Position numbers and translations under genes: made by a program. Below, one piece after another: positions 3,571 through 60,264 of a stretch of 64,000 nucleotides of DNA. Source of the DNA: an uncultured Actinomycetota bacterium (GTDB taxonomy: Bacteria; Actinomycetota; Actinomycetes; S36-B12; GCA-2699445); assembly GCA_963706835.1 (NCBI GenBank), contig CAVPOB010000016.1, positions 132,093-196,092 of the forward strand, given 5' to 3'. The notes below the pieces were generated by a model. That model did no database searches. It was not told where the DNA came from and saw nothing but the letters and a program-made list of their open reading frames with translations. The first letter of the stretch is position 1, and every line of letters begins with the position of its first letter.

Positions 3571-3826
3571 CCCGGCGCATCCGACCTGTACGGCCCCCAC
3601 GCCCGTTCCCGGCGCAGAGGGCTGAAGCCGCTGCCGACGTAGCTGGACCCGCCGCGCACCAGGGGACGTGCCCCCCGCCGGCCCGCCCGCTCCGCCGCCG
3701 CCCGCAGGACCGGAACCCACCACACTCCCGATTGCGATGAGTATGCGTGGCCGAGTGTCGCAATGATCCAGATACGACGACCGCCGACCCGTAGTGTCCG
3801 GGCCGGCGGTGGTTGAGCAGGCGAGG

Positions 3827-9055: not shown

Positions 9056-10299
<1,244 letters not shown>

Positions 10300-10349
10300 C
10301 GGAACTCCGCTCAGCCCCGGCTGCCTTGCTCAGCCCCGGCTGCTTGTGC

Positions 10350-11417
10350 TCAGCCCCCACGGCCCTCCGCGCCGGCCAGGAAGTCGTCGATGATCGGCCA
10401 GGTCGTGGTGGCCGCCCGCGGCCCGGTGAGCACACCCATGTGGCCGCCCGGCGCCTCGCGCAGCGTGACCAGATGCTCGGGCACCAGGGTGCCGAGGTGA
10501 TGGGTGGCGGCCTTCGGGGCAAAAATGTTGTCCGCGGTGCCGGCGATGTTCAACACGGGCACGGCCAGGCCCTCCAGCGTCACCTTCCGCCCGCCCCGCA
10601 GCGCCATGGTGCCCTCGCGGAGGTTGGAGGTGCGGATGAAGTTCTCGTAGATCTGCCGGATCGTGCGCCCCGGGTAGGCCTCCATCGCGTCCATCATGGC
10701 GTCGACCGCCTCGATCTGGGCCAGCACTTCGGGGCTGCCGGACTTCTTCACCAGGAAGTAGGGCTTCTTCGCCAACCGGATCGGGTCGGCGAGCTTGAAC
10801 GCCAGGGTGTTGACCCTTCCCGGCACGCCGCCGGTCACCCGGAACACGGTGTGCTCCAGGGTGCCTCCGGTCACCTTGCCCAGCAGTCGGATGGGCTCGA
10901 ACTTGCCCAGGGCGGTGAAGTCCCACGGTGAGGCGATCATGGCGACCGACGCGATCGGCAGGTCGGTGTGCTCGGCAGCAGTGAACGTGGCCAAGATGCC
11001 GCCCAGGCACCAACCCACCAGGTGCACCGGCCGTGCGTCGTTGCGGCGCGAGACCTCCCGGATCGCTGCGGGCAGGATGTCATCGAGCCAGGTGCTCAGA
11101 TCCAGTTCCGCGTGCTGGCGGGTGGAGATCTCGCCGTAGTCGACCAGGTAGGTCGGCCGTCCCTGCAGCATCAGGTGCTCGGCGAGCGAATTGCCGCGCC
11201 GCAGATCCATCGTCGACGACGCGGTATTGACCGGCGGCACCAGCAGGGCCGGCAGCTGCGCCTCGGGTCGACGCTGGTCTGCGGGCACGTAGTGCAGCAC
11301 CGTGGTGTGCGGCTCGTCGAGGACGACCTCCGAGGGGGTTCGCGTCAGGTCTGCCAGGCCACCGCCGACGAGGTGCCTGTAGAGCGTCCGGGCCCGCGCA
11401 ATCACGTCGTCCACCAC
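10350..11417 (-). CDS. class III PHA-synthase (PhaC)-like alpha/beta hydrolase with Cys nucleophile box
   Basis: 355 aa, the size of class III/IV PhaC. Has a G-x-C-x-G-G box (VGWCLGG), VPVLNIAGTADNIFAP (Asp) and APGGHMGVLTG (His), co-linear with my recollection of Allochromatium PhaC (LGICQGG ... PVLNIFALQDHLVPP ... FPGGHIGIYVSG). Confidence 0.65.
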   Translation of the reverse strand: MVDDVIARARTLYRHLVGGGLADLTRTPSEVVLDEPHTTVLHYVPADQRRPEAQLPALLVPPVNTASSTMDLRRGNSLAEHLMLQGRPTYLVDYGEISTRQHAELDLSTWLDDILPAAIREVSRRNDARPVHLVGWCLGGILATFTAAEHTDLPIASVAMIASPWDFTALGKFEPIRLLGKVTGGTLEHTVFRVTGGVPGRVNTLAFKLADPIRLAKKPYFLVKKSGSPEVLAQIEAVDAMMDAMEAYPGRTIRQIYENFIRTSNLREGTMALRGGRKVTLEGLAVPVLNIAGTADNIFAPKAATHHLGTLVPEHLVTLREAPGGHMGVLTGPRAATTTWPIIDDFLAGAEGRGG

Positions 11418-13226: not shown

Positions 13227-13959
13227 ATGACGCGATCCGACGGCCGGCAGGCCGATGAGCTGCGACCCGTCGCCTTCGAGCGAGGCTGGCTGGACCACGC
13301 CGAAGGCTCGGTGCTGGTGAGCTTCGGCAGGACCCGTGTGCTGTGCGCGGCATCCTTCACACCGGGTGTCCCGCGCTGGCGCCGCGATTCCGGATTGGGA
13401 TGGGTCACCGCCGAATACGCGATGCTGCCTCGGGCCACGCACACCCGGTCCGACCGGGAGTCGGTGCGGGGCCGGATCGGTGGCAGGACGCACGAGATCA
13501 GCCGGCTGATCGGACGCTCGCTGCGGGCGGTCGTGGACGACCGGCAGCTGGGTGAGAACACCATCGCCGTGGACTGCGATGTGCTGCAGGCCGACGGCGG
13601 GACCCGGACCGCGGCGATCACCGGCGCGTATCGTCGCCCTCGCCGACGCCGTGGCCACCGGGCAGCGCCGCGGTCTGATCCCCGACCGGGCGCAGGTGCT
13701 CACCGACTCGGTGGCGGCCGTGAGTGTCGGCATCGTGGCCGGCGAGCCGCGACTGGACCTGCACTACGACGATGATGTCGCCGCCGAGGTCGACATGAAC
13801 GTCGTGATGACTGGGGATGGGCGCTACGTCGAGGTGCAGGGGACGGCCGAGGGGGACCCGTTCGACCGCGCCCTGCTCGACGGTTTGCTCGACCTGGCAG
13901 CCAGCGGCTGCGGGCGGCTGCGGGACTTGCAGACGGCGGCGCTGGAGTCCCAGCGATGA
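13227..13959 (+). pseudogene. rph: ribonuclease PH, one frameshift near 13631
   Basis: [15 protein letters not shown] ... [22 protein letters not shown] ... [20 protein letters not shown] is followed in another frame (ORF 13552-13959) by VALADAV ... AAVSVGIV ... [20 protein letters not shown]. One extra C in GCGTATCGTCGCC. Confidence 0.9.
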
Positions 13960-24452: not shown

Positions 24453-25439
24453 CTAGTCCCGGTCGCGGCGGTCGTCCCGGTCGCGATCGTCGTCCCGGTC
24501 GCGGCGATCGTCCCCGGCGTCCCGGTCGCGATCGTCGTCCCGGTCGCGGCGGTCGTCCCGGTCGTCCCGGTCCTCCCGGCCCCGATCCTGTCCGCGGGTC
24601 GCGGCAGTGATGCGTTCGACCGCCCGTTGGACGGTAGTGGCGTGCTGCTGCGGCTTCTGCATCTGCGTCCGCGGCGGTTCCGGCTGCTGAACCGGCCGAA
24701 CCACGGGTGCCGTTGCGGGTGCCGCTGGCGCCGGCCGCACAGGTGCTGGCGGTGCCGGAGGCCTGGCAACTGCAGGTGCCGCAGGTGCGGCGGGTGGTGC
24801 GACGGGCGCGGGTGGTGCAACGGGTGCGGGTGGCGGTACGGCGCTGTCGGTCTGCGGGGGAGTGGGGGACGGTGCTGCCGGGGCGAGGGGCACTGAGGGG
24901 GGAGTTACCGGTGCATCCGCGGCGGGACCTGGCGTTGCGGGGGATGTCGGTGCCGGGCGACTGTCGCGTGCCGGGCGGCTGTCGCTGACCGGGCGGCGGG
25001 TCGCGGCCGACGGCGAGGAGGGGGTATCGACGAGCGCCGCCGAGCGTGTGGTCAGCGACCCCGGCCAACGCTGGGCCGGACCAAGGCGCAGCGCTGCCGA
25101 GGCAGTGGCCGACGGCGAGCCCTTTTCGGCCGTCGCTGTTACTGCGATCAGTGGTCGGGGGACTCGAGCAGGCTCGAGGGTAGCCGCTGCGCCTGATGTG
25201 GCAGCGACCGCCGTCCCGCGGTCCACGGCCAACGGTGTGGGCACCGTTGCGCGCGGAGGGGCGACCGCAGTTGCGGCAGCGGCGGTGCCGAACAAGAGGA
25301 GTGCCGCGGCACCGATGCGCACTGCCGGGCTGTGCAGCGCCCCTGACCGCGTCGGGATGGAGTCATGCGGGACGACCTTGTCCACGAGTTGCCAGTCCTC
25401 GATGTCGCCGCCTGTCTGGTCCGGCTCCTGGCCCGCCAT
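24453..25439 (-). CDS. membrane-anchored Pro/Ala-rich protein with C-terminal Arg/Asp (RD) repeat tail
   Basis: ATG 25439 with GAGGGGG upstream. One TM span (VRIGAAALLLFGTAAAATAVA), a long P/A-rich region and a terminal RGREDRDDRDDRRDRDDDRDRDAGDDRRDRDDDRDRDDRRDRD. Lies immediately downstream of the anti-sigma gene. Confidence 0.55.
   Translation of the reverse strand: MAGQEPDQTGGDIEDWQLVDKVVPHDSIPTRSGALHSPAVRIGAAALLLFGTAAAATAVAPPRATVPTPLAVDRGTAVAATSGAAATLEPARVPRPLIAVTATAEKGSPSATASAALRLGPAQRWPGSLTTRSAALVDTPSSPSAATRRPVSDSRPARDSRPAPTSPATPGPAADAPVTPPSVPLAPAAPSPTPPQTDSAVPPPAPVAPPAPVAPPAAPAAPAVARPPAPPAPVRPAPAAPATAPVVRPVQQPEPPRTQMQKPQQHATTVQRAVERITAATRGQDRGREDRDDRDDRRDRDDDRDRDAGDDRRDRDDDRDRDDRRDRD
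24456..24578. repeat. 18-nt (hexapeptide) tandem repeat encoding the RD tail
   Basis: About 6 tandem units of GTCCCGGTCGCGNNNGTC, plus shorter GTCCCGGTC units. Confidence 0.8.
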
Positions 25440-25514: not shown

Positions 25515-26285
25515 TTAGGCCTGGATGGTCCCGCGGAGCAGGCTCTGCTTGGAGTGCGTGGGATCGCCGTCCAGGGACTCCACCGAGACATCGACAATCG
25601 TGAACTCGGTCAGATCGGTTCCCGCAGGTATCGCGAAACGGCCCTGCGATCCGGCGGTCAGGGCGCCCAGCGAGAGCATCCCGGACAGGTCGGACCTGAT
25701 CAGCCAGACTTCGTAGTAGCCATCGACATCAGGCAGGCCGCGGGCATCGACCTCGGCGTAGTCCTGCCCGTCGCTGTCCACAATCCGCGTCGTTCCGGTG
25801 GCGTTGGCAGGAGTCAGGAGTGATCCGCCGGCATCGATGGGCACGGCGGTGAGCTCGGACTGCGCGATCACCGTTCCCGCGGGCTCGCTGGTCAGTGCGG
25901 TGGCCCCGAGCGCGCCCAGAGCGACGCCGACCACGGAGGCCGCGGCGGCGAACCGGGTCGTGCGCCTGCGGTTCGCCTGACGCTGCTGGCGGCGCTCTGC
26001 CAGGGCGATGACGCCGGCCCGCTCAGCCTGATCATCAGCGTCGGGGACGAAAGGGCGCAGATCGGAGGCGAGCCCGAGTTCACTGGAGACCGCTGCCCAC
26101 ACTGCTGCCGGGGGTTCCTGCGGAGCGTCGGCTGGCTCCACGCGCCGACCGGTCGTCACCACGGCTCGGTTCTGGTCGAGCTCAGACTGGCACCTGGCGC
26201 ATACCCCGAGGTGGCGCCGCTCATCGTCGTCCAGTGGGTCGCCGAGGGCGACCAGCGCAAGGGTCTCTGCGTCACAGTGCAGCAT
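25515..26285 (-). CDS. anti-sigma factor (zf-HC2 N-terminus, RskA-like C-terminal domain)
   Basis: N-terminal H..C..C motif (RRHLGVCARCQSEL), a central TM span (FAAAASVVGVALGALGATAL) and an extracytoplasmic RskA-like domain (YEVWLI ... L...G). Overlaps the sigma gene stop. Confidence 0.8.
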   Translation of the reverse strand: MLHCDAETLALVALGDPLDDDERRHLGVCARCQSELDQNRAVVTTGRRVEPADAPQEPPAAVWAAVSSELGLASDLRPFVPDADDQAERAGVIALAERRQQRQANRRRTTRFAAAASVVGVALGALGATALTSEPAGTVIAQSELTAVPIDAGGSLLTPANATGTTRIVDSDGQDYAEVDARGLPDVDGYYEVWLIRSDLSGMLSLGALTAGSQGRFAIPAGTDLTEFTIVDVSVESLDGDPTHSKQSLLRGTIQA

Positions 26286-28817: not shown

Positions 28818-30161
28818 GTGGGAACTGTACGGGCGGGCACGGCTGCGGCCGCGCTGGTGATGGCGGTGTGCCTCGGGGTCCTGCCTGCGGCGGCAGTGGA
28901 GTCAGAGGACCCCGCCACGCCTGCACAAACCGAACCGGACCCGGTCGAGCCTGCGCAGACCGACCCGGAGCCGACCGAGCCTGAGCTGGCCGACCCCGCG
29001 CCGGGCGACCCGTATGAGGAAGGCTTGCCCGATCCGTACGAGATCGAGTCGCCCGAGCCCTTCCGGGCGCCAGGTGCGGATGGCTCGGCGGAACCCGACA
29101 CCGACGAGGATCCGGAGGCACTGTCCGAGGCCGAGGCGGAGGCAGCGGCGCGGCTGGACGCCGAGCGCACCCGAGTCGCACGCCTGGCCCGTGCCGAGCT
29201 GGAGCGGGCCCAGGCCCGGCTGGCGCAGGCGGCATCTGCCCGGGAAGCAGCGCTGTCGGAGCAGGTCGCTGCCCGCGCCGAGCAGGAGGCCCTGGCGAAG
29301 GCTCACGGTGCTGCGGTGCTCGCTGGACAGGATGCGCGCCGCGACCTGGGCAACCTGGTGCGGCAGGCGTACACCTCCGGGCCGAGCGAGTGGACGCTCA
29401 TCGCGAGCTTCCTGGATGCCGATGGGCCCACCGATGCCCTGCGCCGGGCATCGTTGTCGACGCTGCTCGCCGAGCGGCAGGACTCCGTTTGGGACGCCGC
29501 AGTTGCCACAGTTGATGAGCTCGCCGCGCAGCAGCAGGCGGCCGGGAAACGACTTGCGCAGGCGGAGGCCGCGGCTCTGACGGCTCAGGAGCAGTACGAG
29601 ACCGCCGCGGATCAGGTGGCGGGGATCCAGGCTGCCCTCGAGGAGGGCGGCATCACCGGAACGGACGGGGCGGCTGAGGTGCAGCGGATCTGCGGCGATG
29701 CCGACACGCCGCTGTGCCAGCCGAGCGGCTGGGGAGAATCCCAGCTCACCCGCGATGCGGTGTGGCTGATGCGGACCGTGCGGCAGGAGTGGCCGCAGAT
29801 CGAGGATGTCGGCGGGTATCGTCCCGTCGATGCCTACCCGGATCACCCCACCGGGCGGGCGGTGGACGTCATGGTGCCCGATGCTGGCAGGTCGGAGGCG
29901 GGCGCAGCCGTCGGCGACGAGATCGCCGCCTACTTCATGGAGCATGCCGACGAGTACGGCGTGATGTACATCATCTGGGACCAGAAGATCTGGGGGGTGG
30001 GCCGGGACCCCATCGTCCCGGTCGACCAGTGGCGGCAGATGTCCGACCGCGGGGACTGGACGTCCAACCATATGGACCACGTGCACATCACCGTGTCCAC
30101 CGGTGTCTCCGGCAGCAACATCTACTCCGTCATCGACGAGGCGCGCTCGCAAGCGGGCTGA
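28818..30161 (+). CDS. secreted coiled-coil protein with C-terminal LAS-type (H-x6-D ... H-x-H) putative zinc peptidase domain
   Basis: Signal peptide (AAAALVMAVCLGVLPAAAVE), an acidic/Pro-rich linker, a long Ala/Glu/Gln-rich coiled-coil, then GGYRPVDAYPDHPTGRAVDVMVP ... YIIWDQKIW ... WTSNHMDHVHITV. Confidence 0.6.
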   Translation: MGTVRAGTAAAALVMAVCLGVLPAAAVESEDPATPAQTEPDPVEPAQTDPEPTEPELADPAPGDPYEEGLPDPYEIESPEPFRAPGADGSAEPDTDEDPEALSEAEAEAAARLDAERTRVARLARAELERAQARLAQAASAREAALSEQVAARAEQEALAKAHGAAVLAGQDARRDLGNLVRQAYTSGPSEWTLIASFLDADGPTDALRRASLSTLLAERQDSVWDAAVATVDELAAQQQAAGKRLAQAEAAALTAQEQYETAADQVAGIQAALEEGGITGTDGAAEVQRICGDADTPLCQPSGWGESQLTRDAVWLMRTVRQEWPQIEDVGGYRPVDAYPDHPTGRAVDVMVPDAGRSEAGAAVGDEIAAYFMEHADEYGVMYIIWDQKIWGVGRDPIVPVDQWRQMSDRGDWTSNHMDHVHITVSTGVSGSNIYSVIDEARSQAG

Positions 30162-30177
30162 GGGTCGGCGCCGGGTT

Positions 30178-30470
30178 GATGGCACCCCTTGCGGGGGTGT
30201 TGCGCCCGGGTCGGGGATTGCGGGCACCCGGTGAAGCGACTGTGCACCCGTTGCGGGGGTTTGCGCCCGGGATGGATGCTCAGAGCGACTCAGGGGCGGC
30301 AACTGCGCACCCGGCATCGGGGTTTGCACCCCGGACGGTGGCTGCGAGCCCCGATCCGGCAGGTTCCGCCCCCGCGGCGGGTGCAAACCCCCGAATCGGG
30401 TGCAGACCTGGCCCCCACACCGACCGATTCCGCCCCCGCGGAGGGTGCGAACCCCCGAATCGGGTGCAGG
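30178..30470. repeat. GC-rich composite repeat cluster B
   Basis: Forward units at about 30181, 30241 and 30301, a 25-nt spacer at 30343-30367, and reverse units at 30368-30405 and 30432-30469 (64-bp period). Same family as clusters A, C and D. Confidence 0.85.
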
Positions 30471-30623
30471 ACCGCCCCGCAGCCGGATGCGCCGCGCGCC
30501 GCGCGGGTGCCCACCCCGCTACCGGCGGGTACCAGGCCGAGGGCAGGTTCCAGGACCTGCGCCAGGGGCAAGCGGCGCGCGCCCGACCCCGACCCCGGCG
30601 TCTTGCATCTGCAGGTATTTCCG

Positions 30624-34259: not shown

Positions 34260-36300
<2,041 letters not shown>

Positions 36301-42174: not shown

Positions 42175-42695
42175 GGGTTGGCGGGCGTTGGCGGGCGTTG
42201 GCGGTGGGGTTGCGCCGGCGTTGGCGGTGGGGTTGCGCCGGCGTTGGCGGGCGTTGCGCCGTGTTGCTGAGGGAAGGTCTGCACCCGGAATGGGGGTTTG
42301 CACCCGCGGCGGGGGCTGGCGGGCCTCCCGGTTGGGCAGGTGTGCACCCGGAATGGGGGTTTGCACCCGGGGCGGGGGCTGTCGGCCGGGAATTCGGCGT
42401 TCTGGCCCCCGCCCCGGGTGCAAACCCCCATCGTGGGTGCAGAGTTCGCCGGGAATTCGGCGTTCTGGCCCCCATTTCGGGTGCAGACCCCCATTCCGGG
42501 TGCAGCGTTGGCCCGGCGAGTCGGGCCCCGGCTGGTCGGTGGCCCCCATTCCGGGTGCAGCGTTGGCCGGCAGCGGCCCTGGCCGCGGCAGCCCCCGTTC
42601 GGGTGCAGACCCCCGTTCCGGGTGCAGCGTTGGCCCGGCAGCGGGCCCTGCAGACCACCCGGCTAGCGGGGTGCCTGCCCCCGCCCCGGGTGCAG
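42175..42695. repeat. GC-rich composite repeat cluster C (preceded by a short GCGTTGGCGG-type tandem)
   Basis: Tandem at 42175-42262. Forward units at 42279 and 42343. 25-nt spacer at 42380-42404 (contains GAATTC). Reverse units at 42405-42441, about 42466-42505 and about 42592-42630, plus half units. The linker GGGAATTCGGCGTTCTGGCC is duplicated at 42388 and 42451. Confidence 0.85.
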
Positions 42696-48947: not shown

Positions 48948-49705
48948 GTCGTGCTCCCGGCAGTCGCGATGGCCCGCCGGGCGATGCCCGCCAGTGCGCG
49001 CAGGTGCGCTGCCCGCGACGAGGCTTCGGCCGCCGACACCGCCGCGCCGTCATCGGTGACCGCGGTCGCCGCAAGCACGGCAACCATCCGCGCCCGCCCC
49101 AGCAACTCGCGGCGCTCGCTGTCCCAACGGGGCGGCAACGCCGGCAGCGGCTGCCCGTCCTCATCCACGACGACCTGGCGCAGGCCGGTGGCGTCGGCAG
49201 CGACATCGAGGTCGGCCAGGGCTGCGGCGTGGCCGACCACGGCAGCGGCGAACTCGGATCGCGCCTGGCGGAGGGTGGGCCAGGCGGAGTGGACGGCCGG
49301 CGAGACGTCGACGATCTCCAGGTGCGCGTCCCCTTCGATGGAGGGGATCAGCACGGCCGCCCTGGTTGGGGCGTCCCCCGTGGGCAGGAAGGCAATCGCC
49401 GTACCGGAGTCGAGGGCCCGCCGCTGCAGCGCCGGTGGCCCCGGCACCCCGAGGACATCTCCCGGCGCTGGCAGCAGCAGCCTGGCGCCTCGATAGCCCT
49501 CTTTGCGCAGCCGTGCCAGCGCCCAGAGCACGGACTCGGCCTCGGCTGCTGTCCGGATCCGCGCGATCCCGGCGGCACGGGCAGCATCGGTCACATCGTC
49601 GGCGCTGGCCCCGCCTTCCAGCGATGCGGCCCCCCATGCGCCGAACGCGGCCGCGGCGACGGCGCGGCGAACCGCCAACAGCGGCGCGGAGACGGACGCG
49701 GTCAC
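48944..49705 (-). CDS. hypothetical Ala-rich protein, translationally coupled to serB
   Basis: 253-aa ORF whose stop overlaps the serB start. GC3-rich codon usage and no motif recognised. Confidence 0.5.
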   Translation of the reverse strand: MTASVSAPLLAVRRAVAAAAFGAWGAASLEGGASADDVTDAARAAGIARIRTAAEAESVLWALARLRKEGYRGARLLLPAPGDVLGVPGPPALQRRALDSGTAIAFLPTGDAPTRAAVLIPSIEGDAHLEIVDVSPAVHSAWPTLRQARSEFAAAVVGHAAALADLDVAADATGLRQVVVDEDGQPLPALPPRWDSERRELLGRARMVAVLAATAVTDDGAAVSAAEASSRAAHLRALAGIARRAIATAGSTT

Positions 49706-49727
49706 CGGACCAGCGTAGCCTCAGCAC

Positions 49728-50565
49728 GTGGGAATGCAGACCGACCAGCCGCCCGGCCCGGACGTCGTCGTGGACTGCCGTGCAGTGGACGTGGTGAAGG
49801 GCGGCAACCCCGTGGTGCGCGGGGTGGATTGGACCGTGCGGGCCGGTGATCGATGGGTCGTGATCGGCCCCAACGGAGCCGGCAAGTCGTCGTTGCTGAA
49901 CGTGATCTCGGCGCGCGCGCAGCCGACGGCGGGCGAGGCGTGGGTGCTCGGGGAGCGGCTCGGGCTGGTTGACGTGTTCCAGTTGCGGCCGCGCATCGGA
50001 GTCGTCGGGCCGGCGGTGGCCGCCGCCATCGCGCCGCGGGAGCGGGTGCGCGATGTGGTGCTGACTGCCGCGTGGGGCAGTACGGGCCACTGGCGGGAGG
50101 AGTACGCGGCCATCGACCTCGAACGGGCGCACGCGCTGCTGGACTGGCTGGGCGCCGGGTCGCTGCGCGATCGCGCCTTCGGCACGCTGTCCGACGGGGA
50201 GCGCAAGCGGGTCCTGGTAGCACGGGCGATGATGCCGGACCCGGAGTTGCTCGTCCTCGACGAACCGGCCGCGGGACTGGATCTGGGTGCCAGGGAGAGC
50301 GTGGTGGCGATGCTGGCGGCCCTGGCCGCGGACCGCAGCGCCCCCGCCATCGTGCTCGTCACCCACCACGTCGAGGAGATCCCGCAGCAGTTCAGCCACG
50401 CGATGCTGCTGTCGCCACGGCGAGGTCGTCGCAGCGGGGCCGTTGGCGGAGGTGGTGACCGGTGCCGCTTTGGGCCGCACCTTCGGCATGCCGATCCAAG
50501 TCGGCCGATACGCCGGCCGGTACTTCGCCGTCGCGACCCGATCCGAGCAGCGTCACATCCCCTAG
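49728..50565 (+). pseudogene. ABC transporter ATP-binding protein, one frameshift near 50415
   Basis: GPNGAGKSS, LSDGERKRVLVARA, LLVLDEPAAGLD and VTHHVEE ... HAMLL, then in another frame (ORF 50287-50565) HGEVVAAGPLAEVVTGAALGRTFGMPIQV ... The frameshift makes ORF 49728-51029 read through into the next gene. Confidence 0.8.
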
Positions 50566-50603
50566 CACGTGTGGGGACTGCTCGGCGGCCGTACAGTGGA
50601 GAC

Positions 50604-51029
50604 GTGGATCCGTGGTTGGCTTGGCTGTTGGCTGCCCTCGTCCTCGGTGCGCTGGAGTTGCTCACCGGTGGGACGCTGGTGCTGTTCATGCTGGCCGGGG
50701 GAGCGGTGGCCGGCGGCCTGACGGCGGCGCTGACCGACAACGCGTTCCTGCCTTGGGTGGTGTTCTCGATCGTCAGTGTGGGGCTGCTGGTCGTTGTGCG
50801 GCCGGTGGCCAAGAATCACGCGCGTCAGCCCCTTGAGCTGCGCAGTGGCGTTGCACGGCTGGTCGGGGAGTCGGCCGAGGTCATCTCCGAGGTGAACGGG
50901 CGCGATGGACGCGTGAAGCTGCACGGCGAGATTTGGTCGGCCAGGGCGTTCGACGGCGCCACGACGTTCGCCCCCGGCCAGTCGGTACAGGTGTTGGAGA
51001 TCGAAGGCGCAACCGCATTGGTGGGATGA
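50604..51029 (+). CDS. NfeD-family membrane protein
   Basis: GTG 50604. Two TM spans, then an OB-fold C-terminus (GESAEVISEVNGRDGRVKLHGEIWSARA ... VQVLEIEGATALV). Immediately precedes the SPFH gene. Confidence 0.8.
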   Translation: MDPWLAWLLAALVLGALELLTGGTLVLFMLAGGAVAGGLTAALTDNAFLPWVVFSIVSVGLLVVVRPVAKNHARQPLELRSGVARLVGESAEVISEVNGRDGRVKLHGEIWSARAFDGATTFAPGQSVQVLEIEGATALVG

Positions 51030-51030
51030 C

Positions 51031-51987
51031 ATGGATATCGAGGCCGGCACGATTCAAGCGCTCGTCGTGGGACTGATTCTTTTCCTCACGGTGCTGGTGC
51101 TGCTGGTGAAGACGGTTCGGATCGTGCCGCAGGCGCATGCCGGGATCGTGGAGCGGCTCGGCCGCTACCAGCGGACACTGACACCCGGGCTGGCGTTGAT
51201 CATCCCGTTCATCGACCGGGTGCGACCGCTGATCGATCAGCGCGAACAGGTGGTCTCCTTCCCGCCCCAGTCGGTGATCACGCTGGACAACCTCGTGGTC
51301 AACATCGATTCGGTCATCTACTTCCAGGTCACCGACCCCAAAGACGCCTCCTACGAGATCGCCGACTACATCACCGGCGTTGAGCAGTTGACGGTCACAA
51401 CGCTGCGCAATGTGGTGGGCGGTATGGATCTGGAGCGCACCTTGACCTCGCGCGAGGAAATCAACATGGCGCTGCGCGGCGTCCTCGACGAGGCCACCGG
51501 ACGCTGGGGGATTCGGGTGAATCGAGTAGAGCTGAAGGCGATCGATCCGCCTCCCTCCATCAAGGATTCGATGGAGAAGCAGATGCGGGCCGAGCGCGAC
51601 AAGCGCGCCGCGATCCTGAACGCCGAGGGCAACCGGCAGGCGTCGATCCTCAACGCCGAGGGCAACCGGCAGGCGTCGATCCTCAACGCCGAGGGCGACG
51701 CGAAGGCCGAGGTGCTGCGGGCCGAGGCGAAGGCAAGGGCCGAGAGCCTGCGCGCGGACGGCCAGGCCCAGGCGATCCAAACGATCAACGCTGCGCTGCG
51801 CGAGGGTCGGGTGGACTCCACGATGCTCACCTATCAGTACTTGCGGCAGCTGCCGGAGATCGCCAAGGGCGACGCCAACAAGGTGTGGCTCATCCCGGCA
51901 GAGTTCGGGCAGGCGATGGCCAAGATGAGCGCCGTCCTGGGCTCGGCCGGTCAACTGAGCGACGCCCCGGAGGAGCCCGAGCAGTAG
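51031..51987 (+). CDS. SPFH/band-7 (stomatin/prohibitin-like) protein
   Basis: 318 aa. N-terminal TM, RIVPQAHAGIVERLGRY, and a coiled-coil AEG repeat region containing a perfect 33-bp duplication. Confidence 0.9.
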   Translation: MDIEAGTIQALVVGLILFLTVLVLLVKTVRIVPQAHAGIVERLGRYQRTLTPGLALIIPFIDRVRPLIDQREQVVSFPPQSVITLDNLVVNIDSVIYFQVTDPKDASYEIADYITGVEQLTVTTLRNVVGGMDLERTLTSREEINMALRGVLDEATGRWGIRVNRVELKAIDPPPSIKDSMEKQMRAERDKRAAILNAEGNRQASILNAEGNRQASILNAEGDAKAEVLRAEAKARAESLRADGQAQAIQTINAALREGRVDSTMLTYQYLRQLPEIAKGDANKVWLIPAEFGQAMAKMSAVLGSAGQLSDAPEEPEQ

Positions 51988-52270
51988 CCGCCTCGGCCGG
52001 GGCCGGTGGGCGGTGACCGGACCGGCCCGGCGCCTCGGCTTCGCGGTTTCTGGCGCCTCGGTTCCGGCCTGGTGCCGTTGGCCCGCGGCGCGGTGCTCGC
52101 GCGGCGGAGAGAGGCTAGCTGCCGGGTTGGCCCACGCTGCAGGGCCCGGTTGCTCGAGGGTTGCGCAGCTTGGCGGCTCGCGGCTGATCCTCGGTGGCAG
52201 GTTCACCGCGTTGCCCGTCCCTCGCCTCCACCAGTCGCAGGTGCGCACCACTCCAGGGAGGTCCGCCGGG

Positions 52271-53072
52271 TCTGCAACCGGGACGGGGGTCTGCACCCGT
52301 TCTGGGGGTTTGCACCCGGCGCAGGGGGGCGGATGGCGGAGACGCCCCTTCTCGGGCCAAATGACCCCCGCCCCGGGTGCACACCGGCTCATCGCGATCG
52401 GGAGTGTGGTGCGCTCGCGTGTCCGCGGGTGGAGCGAGCGGGCGCCGGGGCTCGAGCGTCTGGTGCGCGGGGCGAGTCTGCACCCGGTTCGGGGGTTTGC
52501 ACCCGCCGCGGGGGCGGAATCGGCCGGTGCGCGGGGCGAGTCTGCACCCGGTTCGGGGGTTTGCACCCGCCGCGGGGGCGGAATCGGCCGGATCAGGGCT
52601 CACAGCCCCCGCGCCGGGTGCAAACCCCCATACCGGGTGCACAGTTGCCGTCCCGGAGGCGCTCTCAGCCCCCGTCCCAGGTGCAAACCCCCGCAACGGG
52701 TGCACCGTCGCTTCGTGGGGCTGCCTGCAAACCCCCGCAACGGGTGCACCGTCGCTTCGTGGGGCTGCCTGCAAACCCCCGCAACGGGTGCACCGTCGCT
52801 TCGTGGGGCTGCCTCCAAACCCCCGCAACGGGTGCACAGTCGCTTCGTGAGGCTGCTCCCCATCCCCCCGCAACGGGTGCAGTCGCGCTACCGGTGGTGC
52901 CCTTAGCCCCTGCACGGGGCGCCGACACCCGCAGGAAGCGCAGTTCCGTCCCCGCCCTGAATGAGCCGCTTCGCCCCCACATTCCCCGCGGAAACGGCGC
53001 CCACCCCCAGTCACCGCCCGAACCAGTACACCCAGAGTCGCGATGAGCGTGCAAGCCCCGTTTCGGGTGCAC
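52271..53072. repeat. GC-rich composite repeat cluster D (largest)
   Basis: Forward units from 52271, including a 64-bp direct repeat x2 at 52462-52589. 25-nt spacer at 52580-52604, the inverse complement of the cluster A spacer at about 20/25 identity. Reverse units run from 52605 to about 53072. Confidence 0.9.
52682..52900. repeat. 44-bp tandem array (about 5 copies) inside cluster D
   Basis: TGCAAACCCCCGCAACGGGTGCACCGTCGCTTCGTGGGGCTGCC starts at 52682, 52726, 52770, 52814 and (degenerate) 52858. Confidence 0.9.
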
Positions 53073-53100
53073 ACATGCCACGCGCAGCGCGCAGCAGGGC

Positions 53101-53154
53101 GGGCGCGGCAGCAGCGGCGGGCGCGGCAGCAGCGGCGGGCGCGGCAGCAGCGGC
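53101..53154. repeat. 18-bp tandem repeat x3
   Basis: GGGCGCGGCAGCAGCGGC is repeated three times exactly. Confidence 0.9.
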
Positions 53155-53175
53155 CCCGCCGCCGCTGAACGATCC

Positions 53176-53922
53176 CTACCCCTGGCTCCGCAGCGGCAGC
53201 CGCGCCGACAACGGGGCGATCGCTAGCCCATCGAGCAGTCGCTGGTCGTCGGCGCGGTCGTGCGTGATCTCGATCGGCCAGTCGCGATCCAGTGACTCGG
53301 CGATCGCGGCGACGATCTGCGGATACGACCACGCCTCGTCTGCATTGGCATCCAGATGGTGCAGACCCGGCCGAGGGTTCGCCACCTGGTCCAGCAGCAC
53401 CTGCGCGGTGTCGTCCAGCAGGGAGGTGGCCGGAATCCAGTCGGCGCTGGCACGGATCGGTCCGCTTCCTGCCTGCTCGCGCAGATGCGCCGCCATATTG
53501 TTGCCCCCGCGCACCAGATCGATCTGGTAGCCCAGGCGCACGATGACCGCGGCACTGCTGGCCGCTCCCACCCGATCCTCGCATTCGGCCTTGTAGCGGC
53601 CGTAGTCGTCGGTGGCCGTCCGGGCATCGCCGGGCTGGTGCGGTCCGGGCGCGGCGAAGACCGAGGCGGTGCTGGTGAAGACGAAGGGGATCGCGGCCCG
53701 ACCGGCGAGTTCGGCCAGCTGCCCGGCCCAGGACGGCGCACCCATCGCGAGATGGAGGATGGCGTCCGGCGCGGTCCGGCCGACCATGCGCTCGATCGCC
53801 CTGGGATCGTCGGGCGATGCCGCGCCGCGGTCCCACGGCGTGACCGTCCAACCCGTTGCCCGGGCGGCATCGGCGACCGCCCCTCCCACCGTGCCCGTCG
53901 ATCCGGTCAACAGCAGATGCAT
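53176..53922 (-). CDS. NAD(P)-dependent sugar-nucleotide reductase/epimerase-like protein (RmlD substrate-binding domain-like)
   Basis: MHLLLTGSTGTVGGAV Rossmann motif and YGRYK (YxxxK); 248 aa. Confidence 0.7.
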   Translation of the reverse strand: MHLLLTGSTGTVGGAVADAARATGWTVTPWDRGAASPDDPRAIERMVGRTAPDAILHLAMGAPSWAGQLAELAGRAAIPFVFTSTASVFAAPGPHQPGDARTATDDYGRYKAECEDRVGAASSAAVIVRLGYQIDLVRGGNNMAAHLREQAGSGPIRASADWIPATSLLDDTAQVLLDQVANPRPGLHHLDANADEAWSYPQIVAAIAESLDRDWPIEITHDRADDQRLLDGLAIAPLSARLPLRSQG

Positions 53923-53969
53923 CGGCCGAGTATCGCACCTGAGACGCTGGACGGGTGGCCGTTGAACGG

Positions 53970-54834
53970 GTGACTGAGCTGGCCGATGCGCGGCTGGCCG
54001 ACTACACCAACCTGACCGACGTGGCGCTGCGGCGGGTGCTGGAGCCGCGGAACGGCCTGTACATGGCCGAGGGCGGACAGGTCATCAGCAGGGCGCTGGC
54101 CGTTGGTCACAGCCCCCGCTCCCTCCTTGTGGAGGACAAGCGGCTGCCCCAGGCGCTGGCCCTGCTGGCCGAGGCGGGCTGTGATGCCGCCGCACCCGAC
54201 ATGCCGGTCTACGTCGCGCCGGAGGCACTGATCCGCTCGGTGACCGGATACCGGGTGCATCGGGGATTCCTGGCGGCAATGGGCCGCCCAGCACCCCGAA
54301 CCGATGACGAGGTGCGCGCAGGCGCCTCCCGCATCCTGGTCCTGGCCGACCTGGTGGACCACACCAACGTCGGCGCGGCCTTCCGCAGTGCGGCGGCCCT
54401 CGGCTTCGACGCAGTGCTGGTGTCGCCGCAGCTGCGCCGACCCGCTCTACCGCCGCAGCGTCAAGGTCTCCATGGGGGCAGTGTTGTCGATGCCCTGGGC
54501 GGTGACGGCGCCCTGGCCGCAGGCACTGGATCGCCTGCGCGAGGACGGCTATCGCGTGGCAGCGCTGACCCCGGGCGAATCCGCGGTCGACCTCGCGACG
54601 GTGGCCGCCGATGCCCCACCGCGGATCGCACTGGTCGTGGGAACAGAGGGAGACGGGCTCGGACCGGACGCGATCGCCCGCGCCGACCTGGCGGTTCGCA
54701 TCCCGATGTTCGCCGGCATCGACTCGCTGAACGTGGCAGCCGCCACCGCGGTCGCCTGCTACGCCTTGGGCCCGGCTTCAGCCTCCGCCACTGGTGCGGC
54801 CGGCGAATCGGCGGAGCCACCGATCTTCCCCTGA
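53970..54834 (+). pseudogene. TrmH/SpoU-family RNA methyltransferase, one frameshift near 54430
   Basis: VTELADARLADYTNLTDVALRR ... LADLVDHTNVGAAFRSAAALGFDAVLVSPQ, then in the frame of ORF 54304-54834 CADPLYRRSVKVSMGAV ... ALVVGTEGDGL ... IPMFAGIDSLNVAAATAVACY. Confidence 0.8.
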
Positions 54835-56171
54835 CGGCTCCAGAGGATGAAGATGTAGAGGGGCACGCCGATCACGATGAGCATCCACAGCCAGTAGATC
54901 TCCTCGGTACCACCGCCGAGGAAGGCCAGGATGCAGAAGAGCAGGGCCAGCCCGGCCACGATCATCTTGCGCACGATGTGCTTGATCGGCGACCTTCCCG
55001 TGGTCCAGCACGAGCCACTTGATCTGGGCGGCGGCGCTGAAGGCATAGGACACCATGGTGGCCACCGCCGACACCAGCACGAGCGTGGCGACCGCGTCGC
55101 CGAGGTTGCCGCTGGAGTTCTGCAGCCACAGCACCAGCGACGCCAGCGCCCCGGAGATCCACAGCCCGGAACCGGGCGCGTGGTTGATGTTGAGCTTGCC
55201 GAAGACCCGCGGTGCCAGGCCGTCGAACTCCGCGGCCATCGGGATCTGGCCGGACAGCAGGATCAGTCCGTTCATCGCGCCGAGGCAGGAGATGCAGGCG
55301 ACCACCGCCACTGCGGTCCCGGCCCAACTGCCGAACATGTTCTCCGCTGCGACGGAGAATGCCGCATCGTTGGACTGCAACTCCTCGTTGGGCACTGCGC
55401 CGAAGACCGCGGTGGTGCTGAGCAGGTAGACCAGCGCGGCGGCGGAGGTGCCGATGAGCGTCGCGCGAGGGATCGTCTTGTCGGGCTCGTGGACGTCCCC
55501 CGCCGGAATCGTGGCTGCTTCCACGCCGATGAAGGCGAAGACGGTGAAGGCCATGACCTGGGTCAGCACGTCGAGGTCGAACAGCACCGATCGCCGGTGG
55601 CGTTCCACGGCCCGAGGTTGGCGGCGTCGAAGGCGATGAAGCCGAGCGTGCCGATGAGCAGCAGTGGGACGACCTTCAGGATGGTCAGCACGAACGACAG
55701 CATGCCGCCGGCCACCACGCCCTTGGTGTTGGTCATGGTGAGCAGCCCGATGATGACCACGGCGATGATCACCTGGATCCCGGTCTGGCCCTCCAGGTCC
55801 GGTATCAGCACCTTCAGGTACACCAGGAGCGACGAGGCGATGGCGCCGACACCGACCCAGGCCCCGATCCAGTAGGTCCAGGCCGACTGGAAGCCGATGA
55901 AGTCGCCGAAGCCCTGGCGCGAGAAGGCGTACGGTCCACCCACATCCGGCGTCCTGCGGGCCAGCGACGCGAAGACCAGGGCCAGCATGATCGACCCGCT
56001 CGCGGTGAGCAGGAAGCCGAGCAGGCTGATCGGGCCCCACTGCGCCAGCCAGGTCGGCTGGGTGAAGATGCCGGCGCCGATGATCGTTCCGGTGACCAGG
56101 GTCGTGGCCGGCCACAGCGTCAGCCCGCGTGCCTGAGCCTCGGTCTCCTGCGCTGGTTGCGGCGTGGTCAT
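54759..56171 (-). pseudogene. APC-superfamily amino acid permease, two frameshifts (about 55590 and 55015)
   Basis: Three pieces: MTTPQPAQE ... GTIIGAGIF ... NLGPWNATG (ORF 55563-56795); VMAFTVFAFIGVEAATIPAGDVHEPDKTIPRA ... AAQIKW (ORF 54778-56115); GRSPIKHIVRKMIVAGLALLF ... (ORF 54759-55046). The 3' end overlaps the convergent trmH-like gene by 76 bp. Confidence 0.85.
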
Positions 56172-56257
56172 CGTAGACTCCAGCAGTAGTCGATCACGGT
56201 CCTGTGAGCACACGCTATTGCCAACGCGCGGCCGGGGTGGGGAAATGGAGGACCTTG

Positions 56258-56813
56258 GTGTCCAGTTCGACGGATCTGCCGCAGACCTCAAGCCGTTCCG
56301 GGTGGCTGACCTCCGGTGAACTCGAAGCGGTGCGCGCTCACCTGCCGGTGGTCTATGTCGAAGTCGTGCCGGTGCGGCAGGACGGGAGCCGGTCGGGTGA
56401 CTGCGGTCGGGCTGCTGCTGGCGCCGACCCCGGACGGGGCCATCGCGCGGACCTTGGTGTCCGGTCGGGTGCTGCACGGGGAGCAGGTGCGCGACGCCAT
56501 CCTGCGCCACGTCGCCAAGGACCTCGGTCGGATGGCGATGCCGCGACTGCCGGTGAATCCGGCGCCCTTCACCGTGGTCGAGTACTTCCCGGATCCGACG
56601 GTCTCCGGTTTCCACGACCCGCGGCAGCACGCCATCGCGCTGGCGTTCGTCGTTCCCGTCGATGGCGACTGCCAGCCGTCCCAGGCAGACGCTGGACCTG
56701 GCGTGGGTGGCGCCGCGGCGAGGCGGTGTCGGCGGCGGTCGCCGAGGAGATGAGCGGCGGGCCGGGATCGGCTGGTGCGCATGGCGCTGGCCCATGCCGG
56801 CGTCCTGCCCTGA
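56258..56813 (+). pseudogene. DUF4916 (NUDIX-like) domain protein, about four frameshifts
   Basis: Segments in alternating frames: GELEAVRAHLPVVYVEVVPVRQDGSG / VTAVGLLLAPTPDGAIARTLVSGRVLHGEQVRDAILRHVAKDLG ... FHDPRQHAIALAFVVPVDGDCQPS / QTLDLAWVAP / GEAVSAAVAEEMSGG / RDRLVRMALAHAGVLP-stop. Confidence 0.65.
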
Positions 56814-56942
56814 GCGGAGTCGGGAGCCGCGACGCGGGGCCGGTCCGGCGGGGTCGGCACGCGCGAAATGGCCGCTCGAACGGCGATTGGTGGGCTGCGC
56901 GCGCTAAGTTGGCCGCGTCGCAGTCGCGACCCAGGGGGTGTC

Positions 56943-59055
56943 ATGGCTACGCCGGTCTACCTGATGTCGTTGGAGCCCAACAGCGGCAAGTCGCTTGGTC
57001 TCGCTGGGCGTGCTCGAGGTCGCGGCGAGCCAGGTCGATCGGATCGGGTACTTCCGCCCGGTGGTCCGCGCCGGCGACGGCCGGGACTCGTTGATCGAGA
57101 CCGTCCGCTCCGCCTATCAGCTGCACCAGGAGTACGACGAGTCCTACGGGGTGACCACCGATCAGACCCGTGGGCATGGGCGAGACGGTCCCGGCCAGCC
57201 TGCTGCACCAGATTCTGTCGCGCTACGAGGCGCTGGCCGATCAGTGCGACCTCGTGGTCATCGAGGGGACCGACTACACCGGGGCATCCGCGGCCTTCGA
57301 GTTCGCGCTGAACGCGGAGATCGCCTCGCAGTTCGGGCGCCGTCACGGTGCTGCGTGGAGCGCGCCCACCAGCACACGGTGGAGCAGGTGCGCGGCGCCA
57401 TCTCTGCCGCCGTCGCCAGCCTGCGCGACCGGAAGGTCTCGGTGGCCGCGGTCTTCGTCAACCGGGTCAGCGACAGATCAGCGCGAGGCGTACCAGCGAC
57501 TGGCGCAAGGAGTCGACGGCTACCCGGTTCGACTCATCGCCGACGCCCCGGACCTGAGCACCGCCCACGCTGGCGGAGGTGGCCGAGGCCACCGATGCGA
57601 CCCTCCTGCTCGGCACGGAGGAGGACCTGCGGCGGCCGGTGGGGGCCACCAAGATCGCCGCCATGACGCTGCCGCATTTCCTGACCCGGCTGGAGCCGGG
57701 TTCGCTCGTCATCTCCCCGGGGGATCGCGCCGATATCTTCCTGGCGTCCATGGCGACGCCGTTCGCCGCCGGGTTCCCCTCCGTGAGCGGACTGCTGCTG
57801 AGCGGCGGCTTCACACCGGACGATGTCGTGATGCGCTTCGCCGAGGCGCTGCGCGAGCAGCGCCTGCCGGTGCTGGCGACTCGGCTGGACACCTTCCAGA
57901 CCGCCGCGGCCGTGGCGCGAGGTCCGGGGCCGGATCGAGCACGGGGACGAGCGGCGGATCGCGGAGGCGCTGCGACTGTTCGAAGCGGCTGTCGATGGTG
58001 ACCAGTTGTGGCGGTGGCTGCACGCCGAGCGATCGGCCGTGACGACGCCGCTGATGTTCGAGCGCCGACTGGTAGCGGCGGCCAAGGCCGTCAAGCAGCG
58101 CATCGTGCTGCCGGAGGGTGAGGACGACCGGATCCTGCAGGCGGCCGACCTGCTGCTGCGGCGCGACGTCGTGAACTGGTGATCCTGGGCGACGGCCGGA
58201 CATCGCCGAGCGGTGCGACGTGCTCGGCGCTGGACCTGACGGGCGCCGAGATCATCGACCCGATGCGACCAGCCCCCTGCGCGACGAGTTCGCCGACTTG
58301 CTCTACGAGCTTCGCAAGCACAAGGGCATGACGCGCGATGTCGCCTACGACCAGGTCGCCGACGTGTCCTGGTTCGGCACCATGCTGGTGCACACCGGCC
58401 GCGTTGACGGCATGGTCAGCGGCGCCGCCCACACCACGGCCGACACCGTGCGCCCGGCACTGCAGATCATCCGCACCTCAGCCGGAGGTCTCGGTGGTGT
58501 CCTCGGTGTTCCTGATGGCGCTGCCGGACAAGGTGCTGGTCTACGGCGACTGCGCCGTGGTGCCCGACCCCGACTCCACGCAGCTGGCCGATATCGCGAT
58601 CTCCGTCGGCAGCCACCGCACAGCGTTCGGCATCGATCCCTACGTCGCCCTGCTGTCCTACAGCACCGGGTCCTCCGGCAGCGGGGCCGACGTGGAGAAG
58701 GTCGCCGCGGCGACCGCGCTGGTCCGGGAGCGGCGACCGGATCTGCTGGTCGAGGGCCCGATCCAGTACGACGCTGCGGTGGTGCCGTCGGTGGCCGCGT
58801 CGAAGCTGCCCGGTTCGCCGGTGGCGGGCCGGGCCACCGTGCTGGTGTTCCCCGACCTCAACACCGGCAACAACACCTACAAGGCGGTGCAGCGCTCGGC
58901 CGGCGCATTGGCGATCGGCCCGATCCTGCAGGGCCTGCGGCTGCCGGTCAACGACCTGTCGCGGGGCGCCACCGTCGACGACATCGTCAACACCGTGGTC
59001 ATCACGGCGCTGCAGGCGGTGTCCCCAGCGGCCGCCGACCGGCGAGGAGGCATGA
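56943..59055 (+). pseudogene. pta: phosphate acetyltransferase (long form with N-terminal DRTGG/CobB-like region), at least eight frameshifts
   Basis: MATPVYLMSLEPNSGKS / VSLGVLEVAASQVDRIGYFRPV ... / ... GSLVISPGDRADIFLA ... / QRIVLPEGEDDRILQAADLLLRRDV / ... [50 protein letters not shown] / [23 protein letters not shown] ... [15 protein letters not shown] ... are spread over all three frames. The 3' end is uncertain (59055 via one more shift, or 59102). Confidence 0.85.
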
Positions 59056-59058
59056 GGC

Positions 59059-60264
59059 ATGGCATCGGTGCTGGTGATCAACTCAGGCTCTTCCTCGCTT
59101 GAAGTACGCGCTGATCGATCCTGCACGAGGCCGAACCGCTCGCCGAGCGGCCTCGTCGAGCGCATCGGGGAGCGGGATGGGCCGAATCACCCACCAGGTG
59201 GCGGGCCAGCGGGAGGTCGGTCGAGGAGCCGGTGGCGGACCACGCCGTCTGCGTTCGAGCGCGTGCAGCAGTTGCTCGCCGGCAGCGACGTCATGGCGGC
59301 GGCGGGCGCCCTGGCGGCGGTCGGCCACCGCGTGGTGCACGGCGGGCCACGCTTCTCCGCAGCCGGCGATCGTGACGACGAGGTCCTGGCCGCCATCGAG
59401 GATGTCGTGCCGCTGGCGCCCGCTGCACAACCCCGCCAACCTGCTCGGGATTCGCGCCGCCATGCTGGCCTACCCCGACGCCCCGCACGTCGCGGTGTTC
59501 GACACCGCCTTCCACCAGACGATGCCTCCGGCGGCCTACACCTACGCCATCGACCGGTCGGTCGCCGAGGCCCACCAGTTCCGCCGGCTACGGCTTCCAC
59601 GGCACCAGCCACCGCTACGTGACCGCGCGCGACCGCCGACTACCTGGACATCTCGGCGGATCGACTGGATCTGGTGTCCCTGCACCTGGGCAACGGGGCC
59701 AGTGCGGCGGCGATCTCCGGCGGCCGCAGCATCGAGACCAGCATGGGCGTCGGCCCGCTGGAGGGTCTGGTGATGGGCACCCGCAGCGGCGACATCGATC
59801 CGACGATCATCTTCACGACTGCTGGAGTCGCGGGCATGTCGGCTGGCTGAGGTCGACTGCCCTGCTCAACCGCGGGTCCGGGATGAAGGGCCTGTGCGGC
59901 GACAACGACCTGCGCGTCGTGCAGGCAGCGCGCCGACGCCGGTGACGAGGCCGCCAACACCGCTCGACGGGTCTACGTGCACCGGATCAAGAAGTACCTG
60001 GGCGCCTACCTGGCCGTGCTCGGTCGCGCCGACGCGGTGGTCTTCACCGCCGGGGTGGGGGAGAACGATTGGTGGATTCGTCAGCAGGTCTGCGATGGCC
60101 TGCAGATGTTCGGCATCGCCATCGACCGCACCGCCAACCATGATCTGCGCGCCCGGGGCGAGATCCGCGACATCACGGCCGCTGGGGCCCCGGTGCGCGT
60201 GCTCGTCGTCCCCACCGATGAGGAACGGGAGATCGCCCAACAGGCGGTGGACCTTGTCACCTAG
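59059..60264 (+). pseudogene. ackA: acetate kinase, at least seven frameshifts
   Basis: [14 protein letters not shown] / KYALIDPA ... / [13 protein letters not shown] / [45 protein letters not shown] / [13 protein letters not shown] / [24 protein letters not shown] ... [16 protein letters not shown] / ... VHRIKKYLGAYLAVLGRADAVVFTAGVGEN ... VLVVPTDEEREIAQQ are in alternating frames. Confidence 0.85.

Follow-up and report, generated by a model that had tools for sequence, protein, structure and literature searches.

Research on small palindromic repeats has covered Proteobacteria and Firmicutes well, but high-GC Actinomycetota poorly. The BIMEs of Escherichia coli, notably BIME-2, are mosaics of oriented units joined by conserved linkers, which reside at the 3' ends of genes and amplify in tandem as unit plus linker. 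In Pseudomonas and enterobacteria, RAYT tyrosine transposases mobilise the REPINs. REPINs are extragenic, abundant, inverted doublets of REP sequences that form long hairpins, with conserved arms and a short, variable spacer (PMC3116915, PMC3337134). In one survey of RAYTs, the term Actinobacteria does not occur and the example genera are proteobacterial (PMC5581495), and in the literature on REPIN/RAYT or miniature inverted-repeat transposable element (MITE) families we found nothing specific to Actinobacteria. For the pneumococcal BOX elements (boxA-boxB(n)-boxC), it has been shown that longer arrays vary more between strains (PMC3049150), and in Mycobacterium the TRIT family, a conserved palindrome present in 147 copies at gene ends, has been proposed to act as a bidirectional terminator (PMC3152330). 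Here, we compare these systems with a repeat family in a 64,000-nt stretch of DNA from an uncultured Actinomycetota bacterium (contig CAVPOB010000016.1 of assembly GCA_963706835.1; the whole stretch is referred to as the window), focusing on block D, the repeat-filled gap at positions 51988-53175. Block D is a pile-up of a short family copy, a long inverted composite and a relic unit rather than one element. We consider it probable that these pieces belong to a lineage-specific, non-coding, palindromic family of the REPIN/BIME/MITE-like kind, which was once or still is mobile and has expanded locally at this site.

The family is built from a 19-nt subunit, TGCACCCG-N4-GGGGG-TY. Mapping the octamer TGCACCCG with one mismatch allowed located 50 subunits in the window, all of them intergenic and distributed over four clusters (A to D), and 13 subunit positions are each kept in at least 88% of the 50 copies. 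Two subunits form a module that recurs with a period of 63-64 nt, or of 44 nt when only a single subunit is present. According to the orientation map, all four clusters follow the same order of forward units, a loop of about 25 nt and reverse units. A first-pass annotation, made from the letters of the DNA alone, had assigned block D to a dispersed repeat family, and this assignment is borne out by the four clusters and by the frequency of the 15-mer GGGGGTTTGCACCCG: with up to three mismatches, the motif occurs 32 times compared to 4.0 ± 2.0 times in shuffled sequences, an 8-fold enrichment that was reached in 0 of 100 shuffles. Outside the four clusters, only a few scattered, weak matches with three mismatches were seen. 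Cluster A (3089-3589, plus strand; nhmmer 248 bits), a sister composite of the long copy in D, lies between the convergent DcuC and WhiB genes. The sister copy in cluster B (30168-30490, plus strand; nhmmer 258 bits) starts 7 nt past a stop codon, with sufB following on the same strand about 630 bp further downstream. Cluster C (42273-42695), located between convergent ABC transporter and SURF1 genes, represents a divergent subfamily having a different loop and tandem units of 63 bp and 68 bp. In total, about 1.9 kb of the window (~3%) consists of the repeat family, and the four gaps harboring the clusters are long for that reason, measuring 1188 bp for D, indeed the largest, and 969, 957 and 697 bp for the other three.

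Block D contains 18 of the 50 subunits, spread over about 800 bp. Its description as an intergenic block between convergent SPFH and epimerase-like genes is confirmed by the absence of a codon-position GC signal from 51988-53175, a signal that is present in the genes on both sides, and by the Pfam assignments of these flanks; the long open reading frames (ORFs) crossing the block have no Pfam match. A protein-coding repeat is ruled out, as block D shows no periodicity in third-codon-position GC content (GC3). At the left end, 51988-52267 is devoid of recognisable family units, yielding no nhmmer match to the core profile and only a 15-nt direct repeat (D7); it may represent decayed family copies. 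The adjoining short family copy (52268-52390; nhmmer 34.8 bits) comprises three forward 19-nt subunits, its own 34-nt loop and one reverse subunit. Its forward units start at 52270-52273, in keeping with the annotated start at 52271, and its fold is weakly better than those of shuffled sequences (z = -1.9). The long composite copy (~52444-53019, minus strand), delineated by blastn, alignments and nhmmer, is inverted with respect to A and B. Read in minus-strand order, it consists of degenerate forward units (52905-53019, minus strand), which the alignments show to be common to the left end of cluster A (3089-3200), followed by a 44-bp array, a forward module, the loop and two reverse modules.

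The 64-bp and 44-bp arrays of block D are derived from these same parts. At 52462-52589 (plus strand), the annotated 64-bp direct repeat is an exact duplication, the two copies being identical by string comparison (TRF 52462-52591, 2.0 copies, 100%), and its unit joins a module of two subunits to the first half of the loop. The 44-bp array (52682-52881; TRF 4.5 copies, 95%) repeats one subunit together with a 25-nt spacer; copies 1-3 are identical and copy 4 carries four changes. About five copies had been proposed, and whereas the array itself is evident, the supposed fifth copy (52858-52901) is only ~66% alike. A 44-nt spacing is also native to cluster A (3359 to 3403) and cluster B (30262 to 30306), and the array in D is therefore a product of unequal alignment between pre-existing subunits, not a new unit. 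Further to the right, the degenerate unit predicted at 53051-53072 was found as a solitary relic reverse unit at 53051-53079, a 78% copy of the family with TGCACCCG on the minus strand at 53064-53071. The last array, with an 18-bp unit (53087-53154; TRF 3.9 copies), begins 22 nt downstream of the stop codon of the epimerase gene. Its three exact copies lie at 53101-53154 as annotated, but its inclusion in the repeat family has to be withdrawn: its unit is not similar to the family, whose profile gave marginal noise only, and the array reads as an independent, microsatellite-like duplication in the 3' flank of the epimerase gene.

MIRU and other variable-number tandem repeat (VNTR) loci are likewise intergenic, with 40-65-bp units repeated in tandem and adjacent copies that are identical. 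The 44-bp and 64-bp arrays differ from such loci in being secondary duplications inside a dispersed palindromic element. The family as a whole is reminiscent of BOX and of MITE-like repeats such as RUP, Correia and ERIC, with which it shares a modular build, variable tandem modules, stable predicted RNA stem-loops and an excess in convergent gaps. In BOX, however, the amplified module is the middle part, whereas here the arms themselves are amplified. Moreover, there is no sequence similarity to these elements, and neither a matching insertion-sequence terminal repeat nor a target-site duplication was identified in the family.

Comparing the clusters with one another revealed how far the homology extends. 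By blastn, A 3318-3608 matches D 52726-52436 on the opposite strand (80% over 292 bp), B 30168-30480 matches D 52782-52467, likewise on the opposite strand (81% over 316 bp), and A and B match each other on the same strand with 78% identity. A three-way alignment of A, B and D yielded a common core of ~255 bp, organised as module, spacer, module, loop, module, spacer, module, in which the spacers are also conserved. With a profile of this core, nhmmer gave 248-258 bits in the best orientation and 50-88 bits in the opposite one, with A and B scoring best on the plus strand and D on the minus strand. The source of the polarity is the central loop or spacer (52580-52604, minus strand), the reverse complement of which matches the spacers of A (3440-3464) and B at 21 of 25 positions each, compared to 8 of 25 on the same strand. 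The first-pass annotation had reported about 20 of 25 matching positions and an element with a polarity, and both statements hold; indeed, every feature that it described is present, either exactly where it was placed or a few bases away. The inversion is not limited to the spacer, however, but encompasses the whole composite of ~255-575 bp (nhmmer 257 bits on the minus strand vs 88 on the plus strand). Beyond the core, about 110 more bases of degenerate units are common to A and the inverted D, with the homology ending near A 3089 and D 53019, and thus composites of ~500 bp were copied as units. Taken together, composites of 255-500 bp have been copied as units into several gene-3' intergenic gaps, in either orientation. 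The dispersed copies in A, B and D are ~20% diverged from one another. The proposal that the family is actively expanding accordingly holds in part: very recent local duplication is reflected by the 100%-identical 64-bp and 44-bp copies, but recent transposition is not evident. Compared to the BIMEs, the family likewise forms a mosaic of oriented units with conserved linkers, resides at 3' ends and amplifies in tandem. Whereas BIMEs alternate the orientation of their REP units (Y, Z2, Y, Z2), the present family arranges a forward block and then a reverse block around one loop.

The inverted arrangement gives rise to pronounced predicted secondary structure. The core hairpin of D (52530-52655), consisting of a module, the 25-nt loop and an inverted module, is predicted by RNA folding to form a near-perfect 38-bp stem of -96.7 kcal/mol, as compared to -61.7 ± 4.2 for shuffled sequences (z = -8.3). 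It coincides with the inverted repeat I2, the 45-nt arms of which are 87% complementary and flank the 25-nt loop, and the fold of a 451-nt block gave z = -6.0. We aligned arms and loops of eleven core elements from the window, from two loci of relatives (L005 and L013) and from the metagenome-assembled genome (MAG) CAZECO. The arm motifs were invariant or nearly so, whereas the loops could not be aligned between lineages. At the N4 positions, complementarity between the two arms is consistently lacking in A, B and D (GCAT/GCAT/GTAT vs GTTC/ATTC/GTTC), indicating that the constraint acts on sequence and not on perfect pairing. In a covariation test, nearly all paired columns were invariant. The one two-sided change, from G-C to C-G at the fifth G, would arise whether or not pairing is under selection, since a change in the motif is carried by its inverted copies as well. 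The self-complementary core of the subunit spans only 4 bp (GGGT/ACCC). The conservation of the arms points to recognition by a sequence-specific partner protein.

In many respects, this organisation is that of REPINs: an extragenic location, abundance, inverted arms with a short spacer, a hairpin, a polarity, occurrence in both orientations and in clusters, and conserved arms combined with a variable spacer. The differences reside mainly in the arm, which in our family is composed of at least two direct 19-nt subunits, compared to the single imperfect palindrome of ~20-25 nt in a REPIN. In addition, copying involves whole composites of up to ~500 bp, a GTAG/CTAC end is missing from the window family, whose arms terminate in CTGTGCA or GTCTGCA, and the host is actinobacterial. 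Other element classes were considered and rejected. A canonical G-quadruplex array is inconsistent with G5 runs that are 14 nt apart and each opposite a C5 run in the other arm, an uptake-signal-like motif with the confinement of the motif to clusters, and a CRISPR array with spacers that are copies of one another and with units in both orientations; a Pfam scan of ~61 window proteins detected no Cas domain. Searching the whole window with Rfam 15 at the gathering score returned 0 matches. Every match of a permissive search stayed below threshold and involved the generic long stem, and most of these matches were to microRNA precursor hairpins.

To place block D in an evolutionary context, we used loci around orthologous SPFH genes of relatives as the comparison set. 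The length of site D differs greatly in this set: the SPFH and epimerase genes either overlap or are separated by 53, 260, 314, at least 340 or 1188 bp. The pair overlaps in L015 (SPFH 76% identical) and is 53 bp apart in L004 (88%), in both cases having no element. In L011/L012 (91%), the site measures 260 bp and contains decayed units; in L005/L006 (93%), it measures 314 bp and contains two forward and two reverse modules; and in L018 (92%), a short-read contig stops inside the forward units. The L005 copy shows ~65% identity to D in either orientation. The hypervariability suggested in the first-pass annotation is, at strain level, no more than a possibility: within each of the two available same-population pairs, L005/L006 and L011/L012, both of other lineages, the intergenic regions do not differ in length and show at most one mismatch. 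Judging from these sequences, the occupation of site D is old within the sub-clade, with its content having turned over quickly, and the insertion is probably ancestral to the closest relatives. At site C, L004, L014 and L015 have overlapping ABC and SURF1 genes and no element. L014 (SPFH 82%), which derives from the same MAG as L001-L003, has its own family copy in the convergent SpoU/permease gap, and nhmmer found no family match in the corresponding gap of the window. Other sites have thus been occupied independently in different lineages. The epimerase-like gene is missing at the syntenic position in two related lineages (L007-L010; L014), in which a SpoU methylase gene directly follows SPFH, and hence the right-hand neighbour of cluster D is itself a variable gene.

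Beyond these loci, a scan of genome contigs with a 23-base pattern returned at least three loci of one MAG (CAZECO) among the matches listed, and a metagenome scan returned one contig with the family. A viral scan gave 0 contigs, a distant blastn search against plasmids gave 0 matches, and one 21-kb locus of Jiangella gansuensis contained no family copy. In the CAZECO variant (L001 459-559 and 5812-5830; L002 3430-3475), the arms carry GTAGATGCA at their outer ends, or TGCATCTAC on the other strand. These ends contain the GTAG/CTAC tetranucleotide typical of RAYT-associated REPs and offer a lead.

All four window clusters begin just past a stop codon; the flanking genes converge on A, C and D and share one strand at B. 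Among copies in relatives, the one in L014 is convergent and so, by eye, is that in L013, and those in L001b and L002 lie between same-strand genes. Convergent placement thus accounts for five of eight cases, compared to ~23% of the intergenic gaps in the window by our own count, a suggestive excess in a small sample; in pneumococcus, mobile small repeats are enriched between convergent genes (PMC3049150). The same placement, together with the very stable hairpins and the actinobacterial precedent of TRIT (PMC3152330), could be taken to mean that the elements are host-functional structures, that is, bidirectional terminators or insulators or 3'-end mRNA stabilisers that were selected between convergent genes, with the repetition reflecting recruitment of one hairpin. 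We regard this explanation as unlikely. Within 51700-53500, no terminator-like site was found on either strand, no T-run follows the hairpins, and a consensus scan gave no sigma-70-like promoter. Because purified mycobacterial RNA polymerase passes hairpins that lack U-tracts without terminating (PMC3993855), intrinsic termination is unlikely here. Moreover, one hairpin would suffice for such a function, yet D carries its full series of subunits, and these are conserved in sequence beyond what pairing demands, as seen at the N4 positions. In CAZECO, a family element (L001 5760-5950) resides upstream of secY, on the same strand and among the ribosomal genes of the spc block. Strong termination would be detrimental at such a place, and this copy argues against it. 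Finally, relatives in which the same convergent genes overlap or are 53 bp apart do without the element, showing that it is dispensable at these sites. TRIT itself shares with our family an actinobacterial host, a lineage-restricted distribution and a sequence-conserved palindrome at gene termini, acting in both directions and lacking a canonical U-tract. It is, however, a single short hairpin centred ~8 nt before the stop codon, whereas the family elements measure 110-575 bp, are multi-unit and fully intergenic and vary in presence between relatives; this distinction is drawn from the description of TRIT. The element could possibly impede 3' exonucleases or induce factor-dependent pausing. 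The non-coding gap hosting the CAZECO copy is 1.4 kb long (L001 5225-6631) and separates secY from a 137-residue ORF, which is itself situated between rplO and secY.

A 15-nt motif conserved in sequence at a fixed 19-nt period in both arms, arms that persist across lineages with loops free to vary, and N4 complementarity that is not kept would also be compatible with clustered, iteron-like 19-bp sites for a host nucleoid-associated or chromosome-organising protein, comparable to gyrase or IHF at E. coli BIMEs, in which case the layout would mirror a protein assembly and not a hairpin. This is improbable, given that no candidate protein is known, that the sites are missing at syntenic positions in relatives, that the clusters are confined to gene-3' gaps and not spaced along the chromosome, and that a 19-bp period puts the sites on different faces of the helix; the forward-loop-reverse order and the copying of composites along with their spacers fit the propagation of an element better. 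A very improbable alternative is that assembly of the MAG created the block artificially or at least distorted the lengths of its arrays. Conserved genes show numerous changes of frame, both between 49.7 and 59 kb and at other places, which attest to an imperfect consensus, and the short-read contigs of relatives break inside the repeats. Nevertheless, the same architecture is present in independent assemblies (L001-L003/L014, all of one MAG, L013 and L018), L005 and L006 provide identical sequence from two samples, and the four window clusters are mutually diverged and thus not collapsed copies. The indel-type frame changes on a contig of 418,772 bp also suggest a long-read assembly, which would span a block of 1.2 kb.

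The explanation that we favour, a once or still mobile family piled up and locally expanded at D, is consistent with presence/absence at the orthologous sites C and D and with terminal inverted repeats of the MITE type on a short non-coding element. Several observations weigh against it. Transposase, integrase and Y1 domains are absent from the ~61 window proteins scanned with Pfam, as well as from 14 proteins adjoining copies in other loci, including L001-L003 and L013; the proteins in the window and next to other copies have housekeeping domains only, and neither the window nor the fetched loci contain an autonomous parent element with the same terminal repeats. The boundaries of A and D are fuzzy and show no target-site duplication of 5 bp or more, and at the boundary of cluster B there is only a chance-level, GC-rich 6-mer. 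Given their ~20% divergence, the dispersed copies do not testify to recent transposition, and spread by recombination or gene conversion is possible. Furthermore, any genome-wide copy number is extrapolated from 64 kb of the host genome, other carriers are few in public scans (at least three listed loci of one MAG and one metagenome contig), and the frame changes in housekeeping genes mean that base accuracy and exact array lengths are not guaranteed.

Under the favoured explanation, the family would have spread as a selfish, non-autonomous element, in the past or up to the present. Mobilisation would depend on a sequence-specific enzyme encoded elsewhere that recognises the conserved arm motif, as in the REPIN/RAYT or MITE/transposase pairs, and copies would be kept mainly at places where they do no damage, past stop codons and above all in convergent gaps. 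At site D, an ancestral insertion may have been followed by slipped-strand or unequal recombination between its own 19-nt subunits, giving rise to both the exact doubling of the 64-bp unit and the 4.5 copies of the 44-bp unit, with the second short copy and the relic unit coming to lie beside the main insertion. As a side effect, transcripts from either gene should fold into very stable hairpins, which could block 3' exonucleases or hinder read-through. A bolder version, which we put forward tentatively and by analogy, is that the family constitutes an actinobacterial counterpart of REPINs, that is, long-lived within-genome replicators whose arms would be arrays of 19-nt protein-binding subunits, similar to the multi-site ends of Tn7, Mu or IS21, and which would be served by a dedicated, possibly domesticated enzyme. 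If so, this enzyme would have retained its specificity for TGCACCCG-N4-GGGGG in lineages that have diverged so far that their neutral DNA can no longer be aligned. The repeat family is genuine and well defined, but it belongs to a rather ordinary class of genomic "junk". Recognising it prevents gene callers from reporting spurious ORFs of 300-600 codons across the clusters and accounts for the breaks of short-read contigs at these sites in related genomes. Should copy-number polymorphism be confirmed, the 44-bp and 64-bp arrays could serve as strain markers.

Regarding the genomic setting, the window has a G+C content of 69.9%, and the nearest named relatives by SPFH protein are Jiangellaceae (~70% identity). 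The SPFH/Band_7 gene on the left flank of block D (51031-51987, plus strand; PF01145, E = 2.8e-42) has a GC3 of 0.88. Within it, an in-frame 33-bp tandem repeat (51611-51696; 2.6 copies, 98% identity) encodes a repeated 11-residue stretch. The right flank is the RmlD substrate-binding/NAD-epimerase-like gene (53922 to 53176, minus strand; PF04321, E = 3.4e-16; PF01370, E = 2.3e-8), which is 73% identical to its L004 orthologue over the full length. The two genes converge on the 1188-bp gap.

With syntenic L004 as a reference, frame changes were observed in the ABC ATPase (~50404-50414), SpoU (~54433-54443), amino-acid permease (two), DUF4916 and PTA (at least four) genes, and the SufC, SufS and RNase PH genes are fragmented. 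The affected regions are 49700-59100, 34486-35549 and 13552-13959, and no frame changes were seen from 40 to 49.7 kb. Such a pattern is suggestive of gene decay or of long-read indel errors that were left uncorrected. Single bases are less trustworthy as a result, but not the existence of the block, which is secured by the corroborating independent assemblies.

Other tandem repeats occur in the window. Directly left of cluster C, a 23-bp array of 3.4 copies (42177-42261; also resolved as 10 bp x7.4) is made up of GTTGCGCCGGCGTTGGCGGTGGG and, like the 18-bp array by D, represents a simple tandem repeat adjoining a family cluster. A 15/30-bp tandem array (28919-29012) lies inside a 447-residue ORF without a Pfam match (28818-30161), the stop codon of which is the one 7 nt before cluster B. 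Dense 9-, 18- and 45-bp arrays (24456-24579, 24790-24833 and 24945-25009) occupy 24456-25009, just past the 3' end of a minus-strand anti-sigma-K RskA-like gene (25515-26285). Finally, a 19-bp repeat of 2.5 copies (10309-10357, 93%), unrelated to the family, fills the 50-bp gap between the convergent PALP-enzyme (9352-10299) and hydrolase (10350-11417) genes.

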